A stretch of 64,000 bases of DNA from Escherichia phage vB_EcoM-P3322. Where the stretch lies: sequence record PV191315.1; one strand, 5' to 3'. The notes below the pieces were generated by a model that saw nothing but the letters and a program-made list of their open reading frames with translations, was not told where the DNA came from and did no database searches. Positions 5,178-57,041 of this stretch are shown here, one piece after another. Positions within the stretch are counted from its first letter, which is position 1, and every line of letters starts with the position of its first letter. The translations under genes were made by a program, and so were the position numbers.

Positions 5178-5501
5178 TCACGCCTCCTGTTTTAGTCGAA
5201 AAATATTTTGAATAACTAGAGATGTATAGTTATCACCTAGTCCCATAAGTTCTACTTCCAAGTTTCGAATATCCTCCACCGTAGGAGGATATGTTGGTAA
5301 AAATGCTTGAGCATTACCAGATCCAACTTCATTGCTGTAAGCAGTTGTAAAATTGTAAGATACAAAACATGAAACACCTTTTTGTCGGTACCCGATTAAT
5401 CGACGAATACACCAGATAAGAGCCAAACCTATGAGAACACCTCCTAAACCAGCTAACAAGAAGGATAAGTTCATAATAGCTTCGTTAACAACTGCTTCCA
5501 T
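5178..5501 (-). CDS. membrane protein
   Basis: 107 aa; N-terminal hydrophobic helix LSFLLAGLGGVLIGLALIW. Confidence 0.5.
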   Translation of the reverse strand: MEAVVNEAIMNLSFLLAGLGGVLIGLALIWCIRRLIGYRQKGVSCFVSYNFTTAYSNEVGSGNAQAFLPTYPPTVEDIRNLEVELMGLGDNYTSLVIQNIFRLKQEA

Positions 5502-9703: not shown

Positions 9704-9925
9704 CTACTCCGCAAGAACATTCACTTCGTCAGAGAAAAATACGTAATCACAACCTTCCCAAACATCTTCTTCAAACCACTCCCATCCCTCAACTTTGGAC
9801 ATTTCTTCTATCGTAACAAAGAATGTTGTCATATCATCGCTAACAAGATGCGCTTCAACAACAAAAGGAATCTGAACATTCTCAAAACCAACATAACCCA
9901 ATACATCACAAACTCTAATTTTCAT
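9704..9925 (-). CDS. hypothetical protein, paralog family B
   Basis: Shares W(E/F)W...DYVFF motif with 13957-14187. Confidence 0.5.
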   Translation of the reverse strand: MKIRVCDVLGYVGFENVQIPFVVEAHLVSDDMTTFFVTIEEMSKVEGWEWFEEDVWEGCDYVFFSDEVNVLAE

Positions 9926-9926
9926 A

Positions 9927-10127
9927 TTATGCTCCTTTGTAGATTATGTTGGTGCGTTCACACTCTGCCACCAGCAAGCGATTAGCAATGTTGTCCATAG
10001 GAACATCAATCTCTACGCTCCAGGCATTGATATACACTTCTTCAATCTTTGCTCCAAGCATTTGTGCGATCAGAGCAACAGCCCCAGCATATTCAAGTTT
10101 AATCTCAATTACCATTTTGCACCTCAA
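9927..10127 (-). CDS. hypothetical protein
   Basis: 66-aa ORF. Confidence 0.45.
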   Translation of the reverse strand: MRCKMVIEIKLEYAGAVALIAQMLGAKIEEVYINAWSVEIDVPMDNIANRLLVAECERTNIIYKGA

Positions 10128-28674: not shown

Positions 28675-29217
28675 TCACAAATATCGTCTTTGCGGTATTT
28701 TGTCTGGGAAAAGTATTTCGATCAGTTTGTTATGATATTTGCCTAAAAGATTCTGCCCTTTCCAGGTGGCAGGGTTTAGCACCCCTGGTTCATACATCCC
28801 CATTCCAATTCCGTAAACCTTATCGTAGGGGCTTGCTTCAACAAACGTTTTGTATTGGTAAAGGTGTAAGTCTGCATACAAATCTGGATTCTGTACATAT
28901 TTCAAGCATAAACCTCGCATAACAATACGCTCACGGTTCTCTTCCCATACGTTGTTATCAAAATCCGACACTGCCCTACCCATACGTTTGTAATAAGCTT
29001 GGATCTTCTCATCTTTCCGTATCAAACTATGAGTCAGAATAGCCTGTGCAGTGTTGTGGTCATTAAAAAGCAAAGCTTTACGCCACATCATGTATTGTTC
29101 GACACAATTAAATGTCTGATTGTAACCTGGTTCGGTTTCTGTAAAGGGTGCAATATACCAATTACTAAAAACATCTTTATGTGAAAAGAAGAATACATAT
29201 TCGTCAGTTATTCTCAT
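28675..29217 (-). CDS. NADAR-domain protein (YbiA-like, DUF1768)
   Basis: FSNWY...P, EQYMMWRKALLF, ILTHS, MGRAV, NVWEENRERIVMRGLCLKYVQNPDL, GIGMG...GQNLLGKYHNKLIE follow the NADAR motif order. Confidence 0.75.
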   Translation of the reverse strand: MRITDEYVFFFSHKDVFSNWYIAPFTETEPGYNQTFNCVEQYMMWRKALLFNDHNTAQAILTHSLIRKDEKIQAYYKRMGRAVSDFDNNVWEENRERIVMRGLCLKYVQNPDLYADLHLYQYKTFVEASPYDKVYGIGMGMYEPGVLNPATWKGQNLLGKYHNKLIEILFPDKIPQRRYL

Positions 29218-33481: not shown

Positions 33482-33828
33482 AGATTATCAAAATAACTAG
33501 CGAATAAAAGACGGCCCTCTAATCGTGCCTTCCTTTGATCTTCAGCATACACGATTTCTGGATTACCACTATCAATAAAAGCATTCTCCATCTTTTCTAA
33601 AATATTTAACCACTCTCTTCTACCTGTCTCCTCTTCTTCATCTGTATACGGCGCACTTCTATTTGGATACAAAACACGCATCAGTTTAGTGGGGATCATG
33701 ACAAACGTGCTATTGTTTGCCTTCTCACGGAAGGCTTTAATTCCTGCATAGATTACCTTCCCCAAAGCTGCATCCAAATCCATCAGGTCACTTTCTTCTA
33801 TTTGAATTTCATCGTGTACAATTTTCAT
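33472..33828 (-). CDS. hypothetical protein
   Basis: 118-aa ORF. Confidence 0.5.
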   Translation of the reverse strand: MKIVHDEIQIEESDLMDLDAALGKVIYAGIKAFREKANNSTFVMIPTKLMRVLYPNRSAPYTDEEEETGRREWLNILEKMENAFIDSGNPEIVYAEDQRKARLEGRLLFASYFDNLWS

Positions 33829-34112
33829 CGTGCCTTCTCCCGATCTGCATCTAATTTCAACAAGAAAGCTGTATACTCTTCCGAACCTTGGTGTAAAAAC
33901 ATGTGATAAGAGCTTACCAGTTTCTTCGTTGTCGTATAACGTTCCATTTCCCCAACAACACCTCCACCTAGTGTGTAGAGCACAATACCTTCAACTCCAA
34001 CATAGGTTACTACTTCAACCAAATCTGTGTTATCCCAATAGTAGTTAGGTGACACAATAAGATCGCCCACTGCCAGTTTAATGTTTGCTACTTCATCTTG
34101 TGAATAATACAT
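33825..34112 (-). CDS. hypothetical protein
   Basis: Start at internal ATG (rc 34110-34112) with GAGAGGAGAA RBS. Confidence 0.45.
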   Translation of the reverse strand: MYYSQDEVANIKLAVGDLIVSPNYYWDNTDLVEVVTYVGVEGIVLYTLGGGVVGEMERYTTTKKLVSSYHMFLHQGSEEYTAFLLKLDADREKAR

Positions 34113-34149
34113 TTGGTTCTCCTCTCTTAATTGATGGAAATAGTATACC

Positions 34150-34641
34150 TTACCACATAATCTCGCGCAACTCTTTTTCTTCTTTAAAATTACGCAAGTT
34201 TTCCAGTGCACGGTTTAGGTCTTCTTCCGTCTCTGCTTTCTGGACTTTTTCCATCATTTTCGCAACAATATTTTTCTTAACTTGCAAATCTGGAACAGGC
34301 ATACGTTTTTCCATTTCATAAACTTCTCGTTTATGACGTTCCTCCATCTCTGCTTTTTCTTTTACCCAATCCGCCTCGTCCATTGCACCTTTGCAGACAC
34401 AAGTGTAACCTTTAATAGTATAATCACCATGTTCAATACCAGGTTGAAGAGCTAAGGCTTCATTACCACAATACGCGCACAACGGACGACCCGGCATTTT
34501 CAAAGTTTTGGTAGCCTTAGCGCCACATTGACTATCCCAGCTTGTTTTATAACTGGAACCATCATCTCCGTGAGAACGACCGACTAAGAAGTTACGGAAG
34601 AAGCCAGTAGCACGTTCGTCGATGTAGTCAGGGTAAGCCAT
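34150..34641 (-). CDS. hypothetical Cys-containing protein
   Basis: 163 aa; CAYCGN...CVCKG cysteine pairs. Confidence 0.55.
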   Translation of the reverse strand: MAYPDYIDERATGFFRNFLVGRSHGDDGSSYKTSWDSQCGAKATKTLKMPGRPLCAYCGNEALALQPGIEHGDYTIKGYTCVCKGAMDEADWVKEKAEMEERHKREVYEMEKRMPVPDLQVKKNIVAKMMEKVQKAETEEDLNRALENLRNFKEEKELREIMW

Positions 34642-34654
34642 TGTATTTCTCCTT

Positions 34655-34948
34655 TCACATTAAGACACGTTTTGTGTCGATGGGTGCATTATCAAACATG
34701 TTAAGAACATTGTCAAGCAGTTTTACTAATTCGTTTGTAATTTGTTCCTTTGAACGGGAGGAAGTGAGCACTTTGCTTTCACCAACAATATGCATAACTT
34801 TTATAGGAGCGTCTAAAATGATGTTGTGCTGACGATCCTCTTCAAAAGAAGCCAACCATTTCTCATTGTTACCGTGCAAGGCTACAATCACACCAAAACC
34901 GTTAATTGTTTCAGAAATATTCTTAGTTGCTAAAGTAATGTTCATCAT
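34655..34948 (-). CDS. hypothetical protein (first gene of minus-strand arm)
   Basis: 97-aa ORF next to divergent promoter region. Confidence 0.5.
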   Translation of the reverse strand: MMNITLATKNISETINGFGVIVALHGNNEKWLASFEEDRQHNIILDAPIKVMHIVGESKVLTSSRSKEQITNELVKLLDNVLNMFDNAPIDTKRVLM

Positions 34949-35004: not shown

Positions 35005-35032
35005 TTGACATACTTTTTAATCTTGTTAAGAT
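35005..35032 (+). promoter_or_regulatory. sigma70-like promoter of plus-strand arm
   Basis: TTGACA (35005-35010), 16-nt spacer, TAAGAT (35027-35032); RBS AAAAGGAGAAAA and ATG 35063 follow. Confidence 0.6.
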
Positions 35033-35062: not shown

Positions 35063-35506
35063 ATGCAAAACATCCAAAACATCAAACTGACTTGGCCCGA
35101 AGCTAAAGAAGCAATGAAGGAAGGTAGACGTGTTGAGCACCGCCATTTTTGTGGTGGCGAATGGTTTGAGATGCGAGATGGTGTTATTCTCGACGAACAA
35201 GGTTATAACATGGAAACTTGGTTCAGAGGGGAAGCTTGGCAGGAAGAGGGTTGGTCTGTAATTGAAAAAGAAGACAGTAAGGAAGAAGGCGTGTTGTCTA
35301 ATGTAGAACGCGAGATGAGGGAAACAAAGATACCTGCTTTGGATTTTGTATACCTGGAAGAACTTGTGGCAGCATCTTTTGTAGCAGGAAACCTTTGGAA
35401 TACACCTGTTAGCCGACTGGAGAACCTAAATAACCCGTCTGCTCGTAATCACAAGCTTTATAAGGGTAAAGGTCACAACAAATTAAAGAAAGGAAAGAAG
35501 AAATGA
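35063..35506 (+). CDS. hypothetical protein, possible DUF2829-like N-terminus
   Basis: 147 aa; N-terminal LTWPEAKEAMKEGRRVEHRHF...W pattern; Lys-rich C-terminal tail. Confidence 0.5.
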   Translation: MQNIQNIKLTWPEAKEAMKEGRRVEHRHFCGGEWFEMRDGVILDEQGYNMETWFRGEAWQEEGWSVIEKEDSKEEGVLSNVEREMRETKIPALDFVYLEELVAASFVAGNLWNTPVSRLENLNNPSARNHKLYKGKGHNKLKKGKKK

Positions 35507-35652
35507 TCTACAAAAACAAGTTCACTGGTTGTCTCCGTAAATTTATCAATAAGAAAGGGTATGTTTCTCTTGACAAGGGTGTTACGTGGGTGCAAAATGG
35601 CACTTCAGAACAACTGATCAAGGCTTTACCTTACTATGAGGAGGTTTTATGA
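35503..35652 (+). CDS. hypothetical small protein
   Basis: 49-aa ORF; ATGA start/stop overlap on both sides. Confidence 0.35.
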   Translation: MIYKNKFTGCLRKFINKKGYVSLDKGVTWVQNGTSEQLIKALPYYEEVL

Positions 35653-38901: not shown

Positions 38902-39270
38902 ATGAAGGTATTAAACTTTTACCATTTAGGCAAAACAATCCCAGAGGGTGCTGTTTATATTGGTAGAGCAATGCCACATATGGGACTAAAAGCCTCTAAG
39001 TTTGCAAATCCTTTTAAGTTAAAAGATGATGAACCACGAGGATCAACCATACAAAGGTATAAAGAGTGGTTGTGGGAGCAAATTCGTTGTGGTAAGATCA
39101 CTCTTGAAGATTTATTAGAGTTAGAAGCGAAAGATTTAGTTTGCTTCTGCTCACCTCAACCTTGTCATGGAGATGTATTGGTAGCAGCCGTAGCTTGGGC
39201 TAGAAAAGAGTGGGACAAAAGGCATCCTACTTATGTAGACAATTATTGGATTTGGGAGGAGAATTTTTGA
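38902..39270 (+). CDS. hypothetical protein, possible DUF4326-like
   Basis: GRAMPHMGL...FANPF...YKEWLW...CFCSPQPCHGDVL pattern. Confidence 0.45.
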   Translation: MKVLNFYHLGKTIPEGAVYIGRAMPHMGLKASKFANPFKLKDDEPRGSTIQRYKEWLWEQIRCGKITLEDLLELEAKDLVCFCSPQPCHGDVLVAAVAWARKEWDKRHPTYVDNYWIWEENF

Positions 39271-40157: not shown

Positions 40158-41750
40158 GTGTCTACACAATTGAGTTTTACACCTACTGATGAACAATACG
40201 CTATTGAAAGCGGGTATAAAGAAAATCGTTTCGTTACAATTCAAGCTAAATCTGGATCAGGTAAAACGTCAACACTGTATATGTTGGCTAATGGCACAAA
40301 TGATAGTATTCTATATTTGGCATTTAACAAAAGTATGGCAGAGGAAGCTCGACGTAAAATGCCGCCCAATGTTATGTGCCGAACGCTACATTCTATTTGT
40401 TACCAGCGTCTTCCACAAAACCTTCGACACAAATTATCTCGTCCAGAAGGTCAATATGTTAACGTAGCTGGAACTGGTAGTGAGATTGCCAAGAAATTCA
40501 AGATTCAGAACTTGATCGATAAGAATGGTAAAGTGCTACTGACTCGTGCAATGATCGGGTTAATGGTAAAACAAACTTTAGCTAAATATGAGTTTTCTGA
40601 CGATGAACATATCGGACATAAACATTTTCCTAAAGTGCACATGTCAGACCTAAAACGTAAAAACATCAACGAACAAAAACTTATTAACGAAGTTGTTAAA
40701 TATGCGAAGCAACTTTGGCGTGAGCGTATTGATCCTAAATCAGAAACCATTATGACTCATGACACCTATGTGAAACTCTTTGAATTGAGCAAAGAAGATT
40801 TAGGATACGATATTATTTTTGGAGATGAATTCCAGGATGTTAACCCTGCATTCCTGTCTATCCTTCGTAATGCTAAATCGGCTAAACGTATTGTTGTTGT
40901 GGGTGATGAATTTCAGAGTATTTATCAGTTCCGTGGAAGCCAGAACATGATGAAGCAAACGGCTACATATGGGGTTGAGTTGCCTCTGACAGCTTGTTTT
41001 CGCTTTGGTTCTAAAGTTGCGGACATTGCTAATGCGATCCTTTCTGATCGTTCACCTCTGAAGCATCCGCTGGTAGGCAAAGGTTATGATACTGTCACTG
41101 GAAGTTTTCATTCTGATGTGGTAGATTATAGTAAACCTTACACCATTATTTTCCGTAAGAATTTGACTCTGTTGCTCGAAGCTATGGACCGAATCGCTAA
41201 CGGAGAAGAGATTATTATTAACGTAGATACCAAAGATTTCATTTCTATGGTTGATAGTGTTAATGCTTTACGTAGAGGTGATTTGGACAAAGTTAAACAT
41301 GAGACAGTTCTCCCTTACACTTCTTGGGAAGAATTTGTAGAGTGTGCAGAATCAGATCCTGATGCAAAACGACTTTTAAACATTGTTGTTTCTGGTAAAG
41401 CTAATAATATTGCATATACTTTACGTATGCACCGTAACTCTCCAACGGCTAAAGTTACTTTAACTACAGCCCACAAATCAAAAGGTTTGGAGTGGGATCA
41501 GGTTATTGTTGCAAATGACTTCCCTTCCAATTATGATAAGAAGGGTGAGTGGGTAGGTCTTGAAGAATCAGAACGAAATCTTCTGTATGTTGCACATACA
41601 CGTTGTATTAAATGTCTGCAATGGAACCGAACTGTTCAAGAGATTTTAGACATGCATCGTTTAGGTAAGAGCACGGCTCCTGTATCTGAAGAAGATAAGC
41701 TTATAGCTGCCCTTGCTCGTAAGATTAATCAAATCAGAGAGGATCGTTAA
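40158..41750 (+). CDS. UvrD/PcrA-like SF1 DNA helicase
   Basis: GTG start; Walker A AKSGSGKT, Ia LAFNKSMAEEAR, II FGDEFQDVNP, III VVVGDEFQSIYQFRGS, C-terminal TAHKSKGLEWDQVIV. Confidence 0.85.
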   Translation: MSTQLSFTPTDEQYAIESGYKENRFVTIQAKSGSGKTSTLYMLANGTNDSILYLAFNKSMAEEARRKMPPNVMCRTLHSICYQRLPQNLRHKLSRPEGQYVNVAGTGSEIAKKFKIQNLIDKNGKVLLTRAMIGLMVKQTLAKYEFSDDEHIGHKHFPKVHMSDLKRKNINEQKLINEVVKYAKQLWRERIDPKSETIMTHDTYVKLFELSKEDLGYDIIFGDEFQDVNPAFLSILRNAKSAKRIVVVGDEFQSIYQFRGSQNMMKQTATYGVELPLTACFRFGSKVADIANAILSDRSPLKHPLVGKGYDTVTGSFHSDVVDYSKPYTIIFRKNLTLLLEAMDRIANGEEIIINVDTKDFISMVDSVNALRRGDLDKVKHETVLPYTSWEEFVECAESDPDAKRLLNIVVSGKANNIAYTLRMHRNSPTAKVTLTTAHKSKGLEWDQVIVANDFPSNYDKKGEWVGLEESERNLLYVAHTRCIKCLQWNRTVQEILDMHRLGKSTAPVSEEDKLIAALARKINQIREDR

Positions 41751-47158: not shown

Positions 47159-47815
47159 ATGACTATTAAACATATCTCTTTTGATGTATGGAACACACTG
47201 ATCACAGCAAACTCCAATTACGCAGACATGCGAGCCTGGACTATCGCAAAATATGGAGATATTACGGAAGTGGAAGCAAGAGCAGCTTATAAAAAGATCA
47301 AAAAGGAACTGGATAATGCAGCACTTCAAGGCAAAGCCGAGTGTGCAGCATATGCTTGGGAAAGACTTGGTTCTGAACTTGGGATAACGCCTTGGAAGTC
47401 TGCAAAGCTTCGTTTCGAGTGTGAACAGTGGTTCCTTAAGTTTCCACCACACGTAGCCGTGGATCTGCCGATGTACTTGCTGTATCTTTCGGGGCGTTAT
47501 GATTTGAGTATTAAGAGCAATACCAACTTCATATCAGGGGATATCCTGCGTCGTGCTTGTAAGTTTGATAGTTGGAATTGTTTTGAGTTCACCCATTTCT
47601 CGGATGAAGCTTTACTTTGTAAACCAGATCCGCGATTCTTTGCTCGCACGCTCACGTATTCTCCGATCCCTCTGTTAGGGCACGAAGTGTTGCACGTAGG
47701 CGATAGTGAAGAATATGATGGAAAATGTGTTGACTTAGGATTTAACTTCTGTCATATTAAGAACCCTAACGACTTACTAGAGAAACTTAAAAGAGGAGAA
47801 ATTGTAAATGCGTAA
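47159..47815 (+). CDS. HAD-like hydrolase
   Basis: Motif I FDVWNTL, II LSIKSNTN, III KPDPRFF, IV VGDSEEYD. Confidence 0.7.
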   Translation: MTIKHISFDVWNTLITANSNYADMRAWTIAKYGDITEVEARAAYKKIKKELDNAALQGKAECAAYAWERLGSELGITPWKSAKLRFECEQWFLKFPPHVAVDLPMYLLYLSGRYDLSIKSNTNFISGDILRRACKFDSWNCFEFTHFSDEALLCKPDPRFFARTLTYSPIPLLGHEVLHVGDSEEYDGKCVDLGFNFCHIKNPNDLLEKLKRGEIVNA

Positions 47816-48635
47816 TCAAACTCAAATTTTTGCAAATAAATTTGATGACCTGGAAACTGCTACTTTTGATATCCAAGATTATTCAAAATTGAAATTTGGT
47901 AGTAACCAAGCTGCGCGTCGTATGGGTAAAGAATTGGCACTTCAGTTTTTTGCTCAAGTGGCAATGAAACATATTGGGGAACAATTTGTTATCATTCCTT
48001 CTCCTTATAACCATGTGCATAATGCTGCAACAATGATGACAGATCATTTTATTAATTACTTTAATATGTTGCAATCACAATATGATCAAGGTCGTTCAGC
48101 AGAACTGGACATTATTCATCGTAAAGTTAGCTATATCAACGATTATGGTTTCTTGGATAAAGCTAGTCGTAAGAAACTTATTGATGGGGATACATTCTAC
48201 TGCAACAAAGAATTCTGGGGTGATAAGAAGCTTGTATTCATTGATGATGTAAATATCACTGGAACGCATGAAGACAAACTGATTGAGATCCTTGATGAAA
48301 ATCAAGTTAAAAATGATGTTTACTTCCTGTATTTTGCAAAATACGAAGGTAATCAAGCAGATACCGAAGCTAAACTGAATTTTAACTACATTAATACACC
48401 AGAAGCGTTTGTTAAAATGATTAATGAAGAACGTGATGCACAGTGTCTTGTTCGTCCTATTAAGTATCTTATGGGCCAAAATCATGAAGACTTCAAAATC
48501 ATTCTTAGCCAATTGCCACATTACTATGTAGAGCAACTTTTCTTTGGATGCTTGGGAGAAGGTTACAACCGAATTTCAAAGTATGCTGAAAACTTTGAAT
48601 TCTTGGATCGTTACACAAAACAACACATTCTGTAA
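47808..48635 (+). CDS. phosphoribosyltransferase (type I PRTase)-like protein
   Basis: PRPP-binding-loop-like KKLVFIDDVNITGTHE; 8-nt overlap with HAD gene. Confidence 0.55.
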   Translation: MRNQTQIFANKFDDLETATFDIQDYSKLKFGSNQAARRMGKELALQFFAQVAMKHIGEQFVIIPSPYNHVHNAATMMTDHFINYFNMLQSQYDQGRSAELDIIHRKVSYINDYGFLDKASRKKLIDGDTFYCNKEFWGDKKLVFIDDVNITGTHEDKLIEILDENQVKNDVYFLYFAKYEGNQADTEAKLNFNYINTPEAFVKMINEERDAQCLVRPIKYLMGQNHEDFKIILSQLPHYYVEQLFFGCLGEGYNRISKYAENFEFLDRYTKQHIL

Positions 48636-48648
48636 TAAGGAGCTAAAA

Positions 48649-49122
48649 ATGCTTAAAATTAAAACAGGTAATCTTATTGATGCCGCTAAAGCAGGTGAAG
48701 TAACTGTTATTGCTCATTGTTGCAACTGTATGTGTAATATGGGGGCAGGTATTGCCCCACAAATCAAACGAGCATTTCCTTACGCATATGCAGCAGACTT
48801 AGACACAATGGCTGGTGATCAAAGTAAACTAGGTTGTTTTAGTTTAGGGGTGCCAGACGAACAATCCGACCCTTTGGTATATAATCTATACGGGCAATAC
48901 CGTTACGGATACAATGCTAAAGGTCGTCAGTTGGACTATGATGCACTTTACGATGCACTAATAGCTATGGCTAACGATTTGCTTCTCCGTGACCAAAAAT
49001 GTAAGATCGGCTTACCTATGATTGGCGCTGGATATGCTGGAGGTAATTGGGCTATCATCCAAGTGATGATTGAAGAAACTTTAGTAAAAACAGGTCACGA
49101 TGTGACTATTTATAAACTTTAA
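48649..49122 (+). CDS. macro-domain-like protein
   Basis: Start at ATG 48649 after AAGGAG; GNLIDAAKAGEVTVIAHCCNCMCNMGAGIAPQIKRAFP and GLPMIGAGYAGGNWAII resemble macro-domain loops. Confidence 0.55.
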   Translation: MLKIKTGNLIDAAKAGEVTVIAHCCNCMCNMGAGIAPQIKRAFPYAYAADLDTMAGDQSKLGCFSLGVPDEQSDPLVYNLYGQYRYGYNAKGRQLDYDALYDALIAMANDLLLRDQKCKIGLPMIGAGYAGGNWAIIQVMIEETLVKTGHDVTIYKL

Positions 49123-52035: not shown

Positions 52036-52626
52036 ATGCATACCGAGAGAGACTTGCAACTCTTGTGGTGGGAAGTGATGCAGGAAATAAAAGAAGATTT
52101 TCCTGCTTACTACAACATGTTACGTGAAGCAGGATATAAAGCTTGTGTTAGAAACAAAGTGAATAACTCTTTCGGTTGGTGCAACTACCGAGATAAAATT
52201 GTTGTTGTAAATTGGCACTTGCATAAGAACTCCACAAGAGATATGATCGTGGATACAATGAAGCACGAAATTGCTCATGCTATTGATGGTTGTATGGGTA
52301 AGTTTAGTAGGCACGGTGCTCATTGGCAAAAACTGGCAGCAGAATTAGGGGCTAATCCTAAAGCCACTTCCAAAGAGCCGTTGAACCACGAATATAAATA
52401 TGTTCTTGTTCTGGTAGATAGGTTTGCGACAAGATGTGTTAGAGGTTATAATCGTAAACCTAATCGCATGTACCCAGGTAAGCAACCTAATATGTGGTTG
52501 AAATCAGATAAAGAAGGGACCGAAGGAAAATTATGGTTGTATAAATGGGACGATTGGGTTAAAGTAGCTAAAGAGTACGGTGTTTCACCATATATAAGAG
52601 ATGCAGAAGAGGAGAATGAAGAATGA
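52036..52626 (+). CDS. SprT-like zinc metalloprotease-domain protein
   Basis: HEIAHAIDG (HExxH) followed by HGAHWQ. Confidence 0.6.
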   Translation: MHTERDLQLLWWEVMQEIKEDFPAYYNMLREAGYKACVRNKVNNSFGWCNYRDKIVVVNWHLHKNSTRDMIVDTMKHEIAHAIDGCMGKFSRHGAHWQKLAAELGANPKATSKEPLNHEYKYVLVLVDRFATRCVRGYNRKPNRMYPGKQPNMWLKSDKEGTEGKLWLYKWDDWVKVAKEYGVSPYIRDAEEENEE

Positions 52627-53735
52627 CAAGTCCATTTTTAAAAGCAGCTACTGGTGGTCAGAAGAAGCCTGAAATGAGCGTATTTGCTGCAACAACAGAT
52701 GCAAGTAAATCTGTATTCGCTCCAAGCGTGTTAGATGCCAGTCCTGTTTATGCACCAGCGGCACCGCAAGAAGTTCCAGTTTTGCCTTCTATGACCCGAC
52801 AAGAGATCGAAGAGATTGGGGCAGAGGCAGGAACAACCTTGCGTTCCTTGAATGCCGAGGTATTAAAACATCAACGTAGTAATCAAGGCGATCAGATGAG
52901 TGAACGACTCACAGCTTTGATTAAACAGGCAAAACAACTTGATCCAAACTCTATTAAACAAAGCAAGGGTATTACTAAACTCATTAAAAAAGTTATGGGT
53001 ATGAAAGAAGATCTGTTTGGGGAGTTTGATAATGTTAATAACCGTATTGAAGAGTTGGTAAAGAACCTTCAAATGGATATTCGCAAAGAAGAAGATTCCT
53101 TGGTATATCTTGAAAAGCTACATCAAGCTATTGGACAATATGCTGCAAGTTTGAACCGAGATATGCAGCTTCTAACAGCAACCTATGAAAAAGAAGAACA
53201 AGCTTTGGCTGCTCTTCCAGAAGATGCAGTAGAACAGCGACAAGTGATCCGAGATACTTTGGATCTTCTGGAGATTCGTATTGCAGATTTAAAAGCATTG
53301 CGCCTACTGTGTGTCCAAATGGGACCGCGTGTACAAGGTATGCAAAAAGTTTCTGCAAGCTTAATGCGATCTGCGCGTAACATAGTAAATAATGTTATTC
53401 CTGCTTACTCTGCTAACTTCTCAATGTATATCGAGAGCTTACGTCAAATGAAAGCAGCAGAGACGCAGAATAACGTTCTTGATGAATTTAACCTGGCAAT
53501 TAAACTGGGTAGCGATCTTGCCACACAGAATCAGATCGAAGCAGCAGCACTGGCTAACCGTCAAGTGTTGGATATTGAAACTCTGCGTCACGATCAGGAA
53601 AACTTGGTTAAGATGTTGGAAGAAACTAACCGCATCAATACGGAAGCCCGTGCTGCTCGTGTTGATTATATTAATGAAGTTCAATCTCTGGAAGACGGGA
53701 TGGTAGCTGCTGTGAAACGAGGGCTTGGTAAATGA
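52623..53735 (+). CDS. hypothetical helical protein, possibly TelA-like
   Basis: 370 aa, Gln/Glu/Leu-rich helical composition; size and Ter context fit TelA; no motif verified. Confidence 0.5.
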   Translation: MTSPFLKAATGGQKKPEMSVFAATTDASKSVFAPSVLDASPVYAPAAPQEVPVLPSMTRQEIEEIGAEAGTTLRSLNAEVLKHQRSNQGDQMSERLTALIKQAKQLDPNSIKQSKGITKLIKKVMGMKEDLFGEFDNVNNRIEELVKNLQMDIRKEEDSLVYLEKLHQAIGQYAASLNRDMQLLTATYEKEEQALAALPEDAVEQRQVIRDTLDLLEIRIADLKALRLLCVQMGPRVQGMQKVSASLMRSARNIVNNVIPAYSANFSMYIESLRQMKAAETQNNVLDEFNLAIKLGSDLATQNQIEAAALANRQVLDIETLRHDQENLVKMLEETNRINTEARAARVDYINEVQSLEDGMVAAVKRGLGK

Positions 53736-55133: not shown

Positions 55134-55928
55134 ATGTCCGAGAAAATCAGCCTGAAAAAACGTCAAGAAAACCTTGCTTTCTCTCTGAAAAAGAATAAGA
55201 ACCTGAACGAAGGTAAGATTGTTCTTCGTGTAGCATGTGCTCTAGATATTTCTGGTAGTATGCATGGTCTATATTCTAGTGGGGTAGTGAGTGATTTTGT
55301 AGGTAAACTGCTTCCTTTTGGTATGCTGTTCGACGATAATCAACAAATTGATATGTGGGCCTTCAATACGAGTTCCCAAGAGCTTACTCCAGCAACAGCA
55401 GATGTTTACGATGACTATGTTGGTAAATGTATGCGTAATGTTCGTATCGGAGGTGGAACAAATTACGCCCCTGTAATGGCGGATATCTACGATGAGTATT
55501 TTGGCACTGTTACTAAATATATTACCACTAAACAAGTGGTACAAGAGGAGGCTCCAAAGAAAGGTTTCTTTAATCGTCTACTTGGTAAAACTGAAACAGT
55601 ATCTGTAGAGCGTGAAAAGGTCGTAGCTGTATCTGAACCAGGTGCTGACGTTACCCCTGGTGTTGTATTCTTCCAAACGGATGGTGAGAATGGTGATCCT
55701 AGTGCTGTTCGTCGTCTTATCGAAGAGAATAAGAATAAACCTATTTATTGGTTCATGGTTGGCGTTGGTAATGAGAAGTTTGGCTTCCTGAAAGAACTGG
55801 CAAATGCTTATGATAATGTTGGTTTTATTGGTATTAAAGATTTAGACTTGACAGATTCAGAGCTTTATGACAAACTCTTATCTGAAGAGTTCGGAGAGTG
55901 GGTTGTTAAAGTAGGTGCTAAAAAATGA
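55134..55928 (+). CDS. von Willebrand factor A domain protein (TerY-like)
   Basis: MIDAS DISGSM...GGGTNY...FQTDGENGD; N-terminal MSEKISLKK like TerD N-terminus. Confidence 0.75.
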   Translation: MSEKISLKKRQENLAFSLKKNKNLNEGKIVLRVACALDISGSMHGLYSSGVVSDFVGKLLPFGMLFDDNQQIDMWAFNTSSQELTPATADVYDDYVGKCMRNVRIGGGTNYAPVMADIYDEYFGTVTKYITTKQVVQEEAPKKGFFNRLLGKTETVSVEREKVVAVSEPGADVTPGVVFFQTDGENGDPSAVRRLIEENKNKPIYWFMVGVGNEKFGFLKELANAYDNVGFIGIKDLDLTDSELYDKLLSEEFGEWVVKVGAKK

Positions 55929-56438: not shown

Positions 56439-57041
56439 ATGACTGATAAAATTTCCCTGAAAAAAGGCTCTAGCGAAAAAATTTCCCTGAAGAAAGTTGC
56501 TCCGGCTCTGAAAGAACTGCGCCTGGAATTCTCTTGGAAATCTGATTCTAAACTGGATCTGGATGTAAGTGCACTGGTTTGTCGTCATAATGCCGCTGGC
56601 AATCCTGAAATGTTGTCTGCACGTCATCTGGTTTGCTATGCTAACAAGTTTGATCCTGAACGTTCTACCTTCGCTGGTGACGATGTTCGTGATGGAACTG
56701 GTAGCATGGAGCAGATTGATATTACTCTGGCTAAAATCTCTCCTGATGCACAAGAGATTGCCTTTGTTCTGACCATTGATGATGATACAGGTCTGAAACG
56801 TTTTGGTCATGCTTCTGAAGGTATGCTTAAAATCTTCGACTCCGAGCGCAATGTGGAAATTCTGGATTTTGACTTCCTGGCTCCTGAAGTAGCTGGCAAC
56901 ACAATCTGCCACGTGGCTTCCTTGGTTCGTGAAGATGGGGAATGGAAGCTGAAAGCATATGGTGTAGGTAAAGCTGGTCTGGATATTTGTGATGTGGTGA
57001 TGGCCTTCGGTGGTAAAAAAGAATGGTATGAATGTCCATAA
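56439..57041 (+). CDS. terD: TerD-family protein
   Basis: KISLKKG...LEFSWKS...DLDVSALV...GDDVRDGTG...EQIDITLAKI...IAFVLTIDD...GEWKLKAYGVG follows TerD strand pattern. Confidence 0.85.
   Translation: MTDKISLKKGSSEKISLKKVAPALKELRLEFSWKSDSKLDLDVSALVCRHNAAGNPEMLSARHLVCYANKFDPERSTFAGDDVRDGTGSMEQIDITLAKISPDAQEIAFVLTIDDDTGLKRFGHASEGMLKIFDSERNVEILDFDFLAPEVAGNTICHVASLVREDGEWKLKAYGVGKAGLDICDVVMAFGGKKEWYECP

Follow-up and report, generated by a model that had tools for sequence, protein, structure and literature searches.

A stripped-down, divergent Tad2-like domain is the probable N-terminus of a small early protein of Escherichia phage vB_EcoM-P3322

Escherichia phage vB_EcoM-P3322 (sequence record PV191315.1), a virulent coliphage of the phAPEC8-like group, carries, on the plus strand at positions 35063..35506 of the 64,000-nucleotide stretch analysed here (the window), an open reading frame (ORF) encoding a protein of 147 residues. 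The N-terminal domain of this protein is very probably, in fold and by remote homology, a distant, stripped-down member of the Tad2 (DUF2829) superfamily. The literature and curated libraries gave no description of the sub-family to which the domain belongs, and the diagnostic peptides of this clade were not found in a portion of the Tad2 homolog tables of the 2023 preprint. Automatic DUF2829 labels are already attached to a few clade members, and the sub-family is new as a variant on the known Tad2 fold, not as a categorically new system.

A first-pass annotation of the window had proposed a possible DUF2829-like N-terminus and had named a profile search and a structural comparison as ways to examine it. 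The direct profile search gave nothing: a Pfam scan of the 147-residue protein by hmmscan returned no family even at E≤10, and a search of NCBIfam returned nothing meaningful. In PHROGs, the protein matches phrog_22208, a family of unknown function, over its full length (E=2e-101), and residues 7–68 are covered by phrog_3474, a 64-residue family (E=5e-30). An exhaustive HMMER search of 1.84 billion representatives has identified 190 relatives at E≤1e-3, most of which are domain-only proteins of 60–70 residues. When 146 relatives were scanned singly, PF11195 (Tad2-like, formerly DUF2829) was the only recurrent Pfam family, found in 20 of them, always weakly and at best with E=2.9e-4. A search of PDB sequences with the close-homolog profile gave no match, and a broad-profile search of 177,635 PDB sequences gave SptTad2 as the sole match, with both ends of the domain aligned, at an E-value of 1.2 that is non-significant alone. 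A local hidden Markov model (HMM) built from 121 genuine Tad2 sequences, namely SPO1 Tad2 (as published in the discovery preprint) and 120 genuine PF11195 proteins, scores the window ORF at only E=1.9.

Profile–profile comparison between this Tad2 profile and a clade profile of 171 sequences by hhalign gives a probability of 92.3% (P=5.6e-7) and a score of 36.9. Column-shuffled controls reach a maximum of 15.6 (2.9%) over 100 shuffles, and the reversed profile reaches 14.0; the resemblance to Tad2 goes beyond chance. In agreement with this, structure comparison singles out Tad2/DUF2829 for the N-domain, in which an N-terminal helix is packed on an antiparallel β-sheet ending in a Trp-containing strand, as in the Tad2 family. 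Structures of the ~60-residue clade proteins in BFVD match the N-domain at TM scores of 0.7–0.9. The proposed kinship with DUF2829 thus holds for fold and remote homology, but the residues that bind gcADPR are not conserved and the insertion that builds the dimer interface and second pocket is missing.

Two other candidates raised by the searches were rejected. A protein of 2,489 residues (P0051; E=3e-8 over 15 stretches) is a eukaryote-type Tudor/Agenet/SAM/EF-hand repeat protein matched by summed weak scores, and serves as a warning that the β-strand half of the domain resembles SH3-like/Tudor repeats in sequence. A weak match of the local HMM at 41055-41267 (−) lies antisense inside a UvrD-type helicase gene and is spurious, so that the window holds one copy of the Tad2-like gene by this HMM.

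The gene and its parts are as follows.

35005..35032 (+), sigma-70-like promoter site: TTGACA, a 16-nt spacer and TAAGAT, with TG before the −10 element; 10 of 12 consensus positions match, and the equivalent site is annotated as a promoter in phage ASO2A
35050..35055 (+), Shine–Dalgarno sequence AAGGAG, 7 nt before the ATG, read off the sequence
35063..35506 (+), coding sequence of 147 residues plus stop; a hypothetical protein in phAPEC8-like phages, with a match to phrog_22208
35072..35266 (+), minimal, insertion-less Tad2-like domain, residues 4–68, with the clade signature H26, F29, E33, E45, G47, W53 and W64
35267..35338 (+), acidic linker, residues 69–92, variable in length and sequence; indels and low conservation in the homolog alignment, predicted local distance difference test (pLDDT) below 50
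35339..35461 (+), C-terminal segment, residues 93–133: an 'LE' helix (LEELVAASF), then W-x-TPVSR and PSARNHKLY; invariant alignment columns, low-confidence model
35462..35503 (+), basic tail KGKGHNKLKKGKKK, residues 134–147, motif K-G-[KR]-G-H-N-[KR]-L-x-K-x-K-K; invariant in 22 of 22 close homologs
35503..35652 (+), downstream gene of 49 residues, whose ATG overlaps the preceding stop (ATGA); a syntenic neighbour, with a homolog also after the gene in the distant contig L002

The ORF, the N-terminal motif, the basic tail and the place behind the plus-arm promoter, as given by the first-pass annotation, were all confirmed. The reading frame agrees with the sequence, residues 9–29 are LTWPEAKEAMKEGRRVEHRHF, identical to the motif quoted there, and the last 14 residues form the tail listed above, with Lys or Arg at 8 of the 15 terminal residues. 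The promoter, described there as strong, appears to be so only in the sense of its consensus match. It heads the plus-strand arm of a divergent early region, with the window gene as the first cistron behind it; in L002, a distant viral contig of 148 kb, the homolog is the second gene behind the promoter. In the curated relative ASO2A, the rightward arm of a divergent region rich in small hypothetical genes starts from this annotated promoter. Over 3 kb around the gene, the sequence is 98.5% identical to that of Escherichia phage phAPEC8, and matches to this stretch occur in 126 phage records. A word-indexed search has identified 21 homologs, all from phAPEC8-like phages and 51–97% identical, none of which has a Pfam assignment. 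The frame is kept in all 21, and so the gene is genuine.

The homolog alignment consists of three parts: a conserved N-domain (residues 1–68), a variable acidic linker and a C-terminal segment with many invariant columns. Within residues 4–68, the secondary structure comprises helix α1 (11–19), β-strands at 23–26, 35–38 and 41–44, a short helix (58–61) and a final strand (64–67). Some close homologs (P0015, P0017, P0021 and P0041) are apparently truncated or carry internal deletions, several of them within the domain, suggesting that the gene is dispensable in some phage lineages and decays there as accessory genes do. The window protein begins with MQNIQNIKL, compared with MQNIKL in most homologs, a 3-residue QNI duplication (window 35063..35080).

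The tetramer of SPO1 Tad2 binds gcADPR at the junction of two protomers, with W25 and W73 stacked against the ligand, its phosphates and riboses contacted by N26 and D79, and further contributions from I63, T65, T78, D67, H71 and S76. The equivalents in HgmTad2 are W21/N22/G23 and S90/T92/D93, whose mutation abolishes binding. The pocket is built from the β1–β2 loop together with the loop and helix before the last strand, and the β2–β5 insertion, containing helix α2, builds a V-shaped dimer interface; long versions of this insertion add a cyclic-dinucleotide pocket. Among the 121 genuine Tad2 proteins, R22, G24, W25, N26, G27, K28, W73, S76, Q77, T78, D79, D84 and W85 (SPO1 numbering) are 98–100% conserved.

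The conserved positions of the window's clade are different. Among 150 distant members, these are A14, G21, H26 (89%), F29 (94%), E33 (98%), E45 (93%), G47 (91%), W53 (67% Trp and 15% Phe), G63 and W64 (89%). The hhalign alignment pairs W53 with W73, W64 with W85, and H/Y28 or F29 with W25. R22 of Tad2 is replaced by His, N26 by Thr, Ser, Ala or Cys (or Phe), K28 mostly by Asp or Glu, and N29 by Glu, and the S76-Q77-T78-D79 segment corresponds to the variable residues 55–58. Of the gcADPR pocket, the clade thus keeps the aromatics alone (F29 and W53), and the Arg, Asn, Lys, Ser, Thr and Asp ligands are not conserved. Under either register of the β1–β2 loop, the aromatic platform survives and the basic and polar ligands are lost. 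The seven-residue signature HFEEGWW is exact in 88 of 171 clade members, and the Tad2-type R-x-G-W-N-G-K loop occurs in none of the 171; no intermediate sequences were found between the two. To judge from the alignments, the clade is discrete from genuine Tad2.

The clade-invariant residues are inferred to fall in two loops, β1–β2 and the one preceding the last helix, which in Tad2 form the walls of the inter-protomer pocket, and for this reason a Tad2-like mechanism is considered the likeliest. The proposed course is that the small domain would be produced very early in infection from the first cistron behind the early promoter, and that this mini-Tad2 domain would oligomerise. A pocket formed from the β1–β2 loop and the loop before the last helix, remodelled to an aromatic-plus-acidic character, would then capture a small molecule and keep it sequestered; this would probably be an immune or stress signal of the host. 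The ligand could be some other signal, a cationic moiety or a metal-bridged ligand. It is probably not 3'cADPR bound in the canonical way, since His, Glu, Asp or small residues stand in place of R22, N26, K28, S76, T78 and D79. The C-terminal half, which ends in the invariant basic tail, would be a lineage-specific accessory, serving either as a tether to an anionic partner such as nucleic acid, membrane or a host protein, or as a lid on the pocket. Such a sponge mechanism is plausible because the Tad2 scaffold has been re-specialised to 3'cADPR, His-ADPR, cCMP/cUMP, N7-cADPR and cyclic dinucleotides, and because phage sponges are short proteins that are made early and often joined to additional modules. 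The domain of the window protein is short and its gene early; however, it has conserved Glu and His at the presumed pocket and a net charge of −6 over the domain. Taken as a whole, the predicted mechanism with a changed ligand is put somewhat below an even chance.

Several observations weigh against such a mechanism. The pockets of known sponges are usually positively charged, unlike the acidic pocket presumed here; acidic residues and His occupy the places of R22, K28 and N29 of Tad2, and the domain's net charge (−6 in the window, −4.0 on average in the clade) compares with −1.4 in Tad2. About 25 residues of SPO1 Tad2 (~36–59, the β2–β5 insertion with helix α2) are without a counterpart in the hhalign alignment, and the predicted model has a tight β-hairpin alone at residues 35–44 in place of the insertion. 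Because the α2 insertion that makes the V-shaped dimer interface is absent, the Tad2 tetramer and its inter-protomer pockets may not form here. The residue equivalence in the β1–β2 loop is uncertain by one position in hhalign, and the clustering of H26, E33 and E45 at a single sheet edge is a prediction from strand topology. A bolder version of the sponge mechanism, considered rather improbable, is that the clade represents a widespread, charge-reversed, insertion-less mini-Tad2 family of virulent enterobacterial phages which sequesters an immune or stress signal handled by no known sponge, for example one with a cationic or metal-bridged group, and that interchangeable basic tails would localise the sponge to the site where the signal is made or sensed.

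The main rival to the sponge mechanism is a repurposed fold, in which the domain would be a protein-binding or oligomerisation module, the basic tail would be the business end acting on an anionic host component, and no small molecule would be sequestered. The tail could then target nucleoid DNA, RNA or the ribosome, membrane phospholipid or an acidic host protein during early host takeover. The charge distribution, with an acidic domain (−6) and +10 over the last 30 residues of the window protein, is consistent with this, and an acidic conserved site is ill-suited to a positively charged sponge pocket. The tail is also invariant and under selection at the peptide level, because its 14 codons differ from those of the L002 homolog by 3 synonymous and 3 conservative substitutions. 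In the window as in L002, the stop codon shares an ATGA overlap with an ATG, and the final codons of the tail may thus be under a further constraint from translational coupling. In addition, about four clade members (P0099, P0111 and P0118; also P0090 and P0120) carry, after a variable linker, a SEC-C zinc knuckle of the form C-x-C-G-S-G-K-K-[FY]-K-K-C-C. The domain has thus been joined repeatedly to short basic C-terminal tails, and since the SEC-C knuckle occupies the same position as the tail of the window protein (KGKGHNKL..KKK), the tails may be interchangeable.

Against such a use of the fold, 68 of 148 family members are stand-alone domains of ~60 residues without a tail, and the domain must therefore be functional by itself. 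Moreover, the most conserved residues lie in the loops that form the Tad2 pocket and not on a broad surface, and the invariant tail is confined to one narrow lineage. The C-terminal half, mostly predicted to be disordered and basic, has no Pfam or PDB match and is restricted to 70 Phapecoctavirus-like records among sequenced phages; the exhaustive search found no protein carrying it without the N-domain, and a dedicated word-indexed search with the C-terminal module returned solely fragments from within this gene family. Five representatives with no more than 50% identity (P0022, P0023, P0029, P0038 and the L002 ORF) share the 'LE' helix and the terminal KGKGHNKL-type motif, and their middles are unrelated. 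On balance, a repurposed fold with a basic tail is judged unlikely, though by no means negligible.

In L002 (an IMG/VR contig of a 148-kb phage), the ORF that overlaps the stop of the Tad2-like gene by ATGA is a micro-ORF of 24 codons at 5420..5495, MKILYIEDVMCEKCYGSIFSGGCTCK, with a CxxC...CxC pattern, which may encode a tiny zinc-binding peptide or be a chance ORF. In the window the overlapping gene is the 49-residue one, the L002 homolog of which lies beyond the micro-ORF, further downstream.

A canonical Tad2 function, in which the protein would sequester 1''-3' gcADPR (3'cADPR) in a pocket of the SPO1 Tad2 type and so block type I Thoeris, agrees with the fold and remote homology, with the aromatics kept at the positions of W25, W73 and W85, and with the early gene position. 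The phage group has already been reported to carry an anti-TIR countermeasure, the MazG-like Atd1. However, the PF11195 model finds nothing in the window protein, none of the polar and basic contacts conserved in genuine Tad2 is kept in the clade, and the dimer-forming insertion and any intermediate sequences are missing, so that this function is considered quite improbable. Equally doubtful is an enzymatic role, in which the near-invariant H26/E33/E45 triad would bind a metal and the domain would hydrolyse or modify a nucleotide signal. One His and two Glu, 89–98% conserved and placed by predicted topology at one sheet edge, would resemble a metal site, and phages do use enzymes that destroy immune signals; but this idea is pure inference, a domain of ~60 residues without known catalytic relatives is an unlikely enzyme, Pfam and structure searches found no similarity to a hydrolase family, and ligand cleavage is not known from any member of the Tad2 family, SPO1 Tad2 releasing its ligand intact. 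That the Tad2 resemblance is convergent or a chance likeness on a generic small SH3-like α/β fold, and so uninformative on function, is highly improbable in view of the shuffled hhalign controls.

The domain is carried by 506 phage records in a tblastn search, including 169 from Klebsiella, 144 from Escherichia and 85 from Salmonella phages, and all copies are annotated as hypothetical. The carriers span T4-like, T5-like, FelixO1-like, rV5-like and phAPEC8-like genome sizes. In T5-like phages, the distance of the copy from the left end is ~0.6–10 kb, and in several records it is placed twice; such double copies are consistent with a location in the pre-early (first-step-transfer) terminal repeat. 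Among these T5-like copies, a stand-alone homolog of 66 residues is ORF18 of Salmonella phage 100268_sal2 (L007 3510..3710; 9799..9999 of the record). For another stand-alone relative (P0024), the contigs of ~1 kb gave no informative neighbours. One protein of 175 residues (P0043) is a natural tandem duplicate of the mini-Tad2 domain (residues 3–65 and 82–147), which hints that the domain may work in pairs.

The first-pass annotation had further counted the gene as a third ADP-ribose-related one in the window. This claim finds no support, since the gcADPR-binding residues are not conserved, leaving no tie of the gene to ADP-ribose chemistry, and the other genes concerned belong to separate transcription units. 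In short, the structural guess was good, and the functional one exceeds the evidence. The neighbouring genes that bear on this question, and those of the minus arm, are as follows.

28675..29217 (−), NADAR-domain protein of 180 residues (E=7.8e-36, 124 bits), 6 kb away on the other arm
33825..34112 (−), Phage_tudor domain protein of the minus arm (E=8e-25)
34150..34641 (−), Cys-rich protein of 163 residues, minus arm
34655..34948 (−), DUF7325 protein of the minus arm (E=5e-24)
38902..39270 (+), DUF4326 protein of 122 residues (E=8e-21), on the same arm as the gene and 3.4 kb downstream of it, in another transcription unit
47808..48635 (+), ComF-like phosphoribosyltransferase (PRTase; E=2e-41), overlapping the Macro-domain ORF
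48583..49122 (+), marginal Macro-domain ORF of 179 residues (22.8 bits against a cut-off of 22), 13 kb away
52623..53735 (TelA), 55134..55928 (vWA-TerF-like) and 56439..57041 (TerD), which with TerC form a Ter-type cluster adjoining the PRTase/Macro pair

The NADAR family is linked to ADP-ribose/NAD-related chemistry, and its gene is probably one of the other 'ADP-ribose-related' genes that the first-pass annotation had in mind. The PRTase, Macro-domain and Ter-type region may form a module for nucleotide- or ADP-ribose-related metabolites, carried by a virulent phage. The minus arm (33825..34948) likewise begins with genes for small proteins of families of unknown function.

Sponge proteins have repeatedly been the handle for discovering bacterial immune signals, and ModTad2 led to His-ADPR. 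The clade described here combines the Tad2 fold with a rebuilt pocket, occurs in hundreds of therapeutic-type coliphages and Klebsiella and Salmonella phages, and is among the earliest-expressed genes, and it is therefore a cheap, well-defined candidate for ligand fishing and for tests against the signalling defences of Enterobacteriaceae. The clade also shows how small the Tad2 scaffold can be, at its lower size limit; should it prove not to be a sponge, the fold would have been reused for something else. For annotation, the label 'Tad2-like fold, divergent pocket, function unknown' is advised in place of 'anti-Thoeris'.

Among named systems, Atd1, which is reported from Phapecoctavirus as an anti-TIR protein, was considered as an identity for the window gene and rejected: it is a MazG-like (p)ppGpp pyrophosphatase, the window protein has no MazG match in Pfam, and so the two are different genes. 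SPO1 Tad2 (gp34.65; PF11195; PDB 8SME/8SMF/8SMG and 8WJE), likewise a small early phage protein, shares with the window protein the N-terminal helix motif F/W-x-EA-x-x-A-x-K-x-G-K/R-x-V followed by β1, an aromatic in the β1–β2 loop, an aromatic before the last helix and the terminal D/G-W-x-[IV] strand. The two differ in that SPO1 Tad2 has 89 residues, compared with 62–65 in the window domain, and in that the window protein falls below the Pfam threshold for PF11195 and has an extra C-terminal extension of 80 residues. AcrIIA7/HgmTad2 (PDB 8KBI) and ModTad2 (PDB 9EIB, the His-ADPR complex), both tetramers, have long β2–β5 insertions with a second, cyclic-dinucleotide pocket and are 19–21% identical to the window domain. 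Fusions of Tad2 with Acb4 or with Sequestin (PF21825) share the arrangement of a Tad2-type domain, a linker and a second short module, but the C-terminal module of the window protein matches no known sponge or Pfam family and is mostly predicted to be disordered and basic instead of being a folded oligomeric domain. The actual clade of the window protein consists of phrog_3474 and phrog_22208 together with viral proteins of ~60 residues labelled 'DUF2829 domain-containing', such as UniProt A0A8S5RI74, A0A2K9VAK2 of Klebsiella phage KpS110 and A0A482JJB6 of Shigella phage KPS64. Most clade members are stand-alone domains; in the window protein, the domain is followed by the linker, the LE helix and the KGKGHNKL tail, additions that are particular to Phapecoctavirus-like phages.
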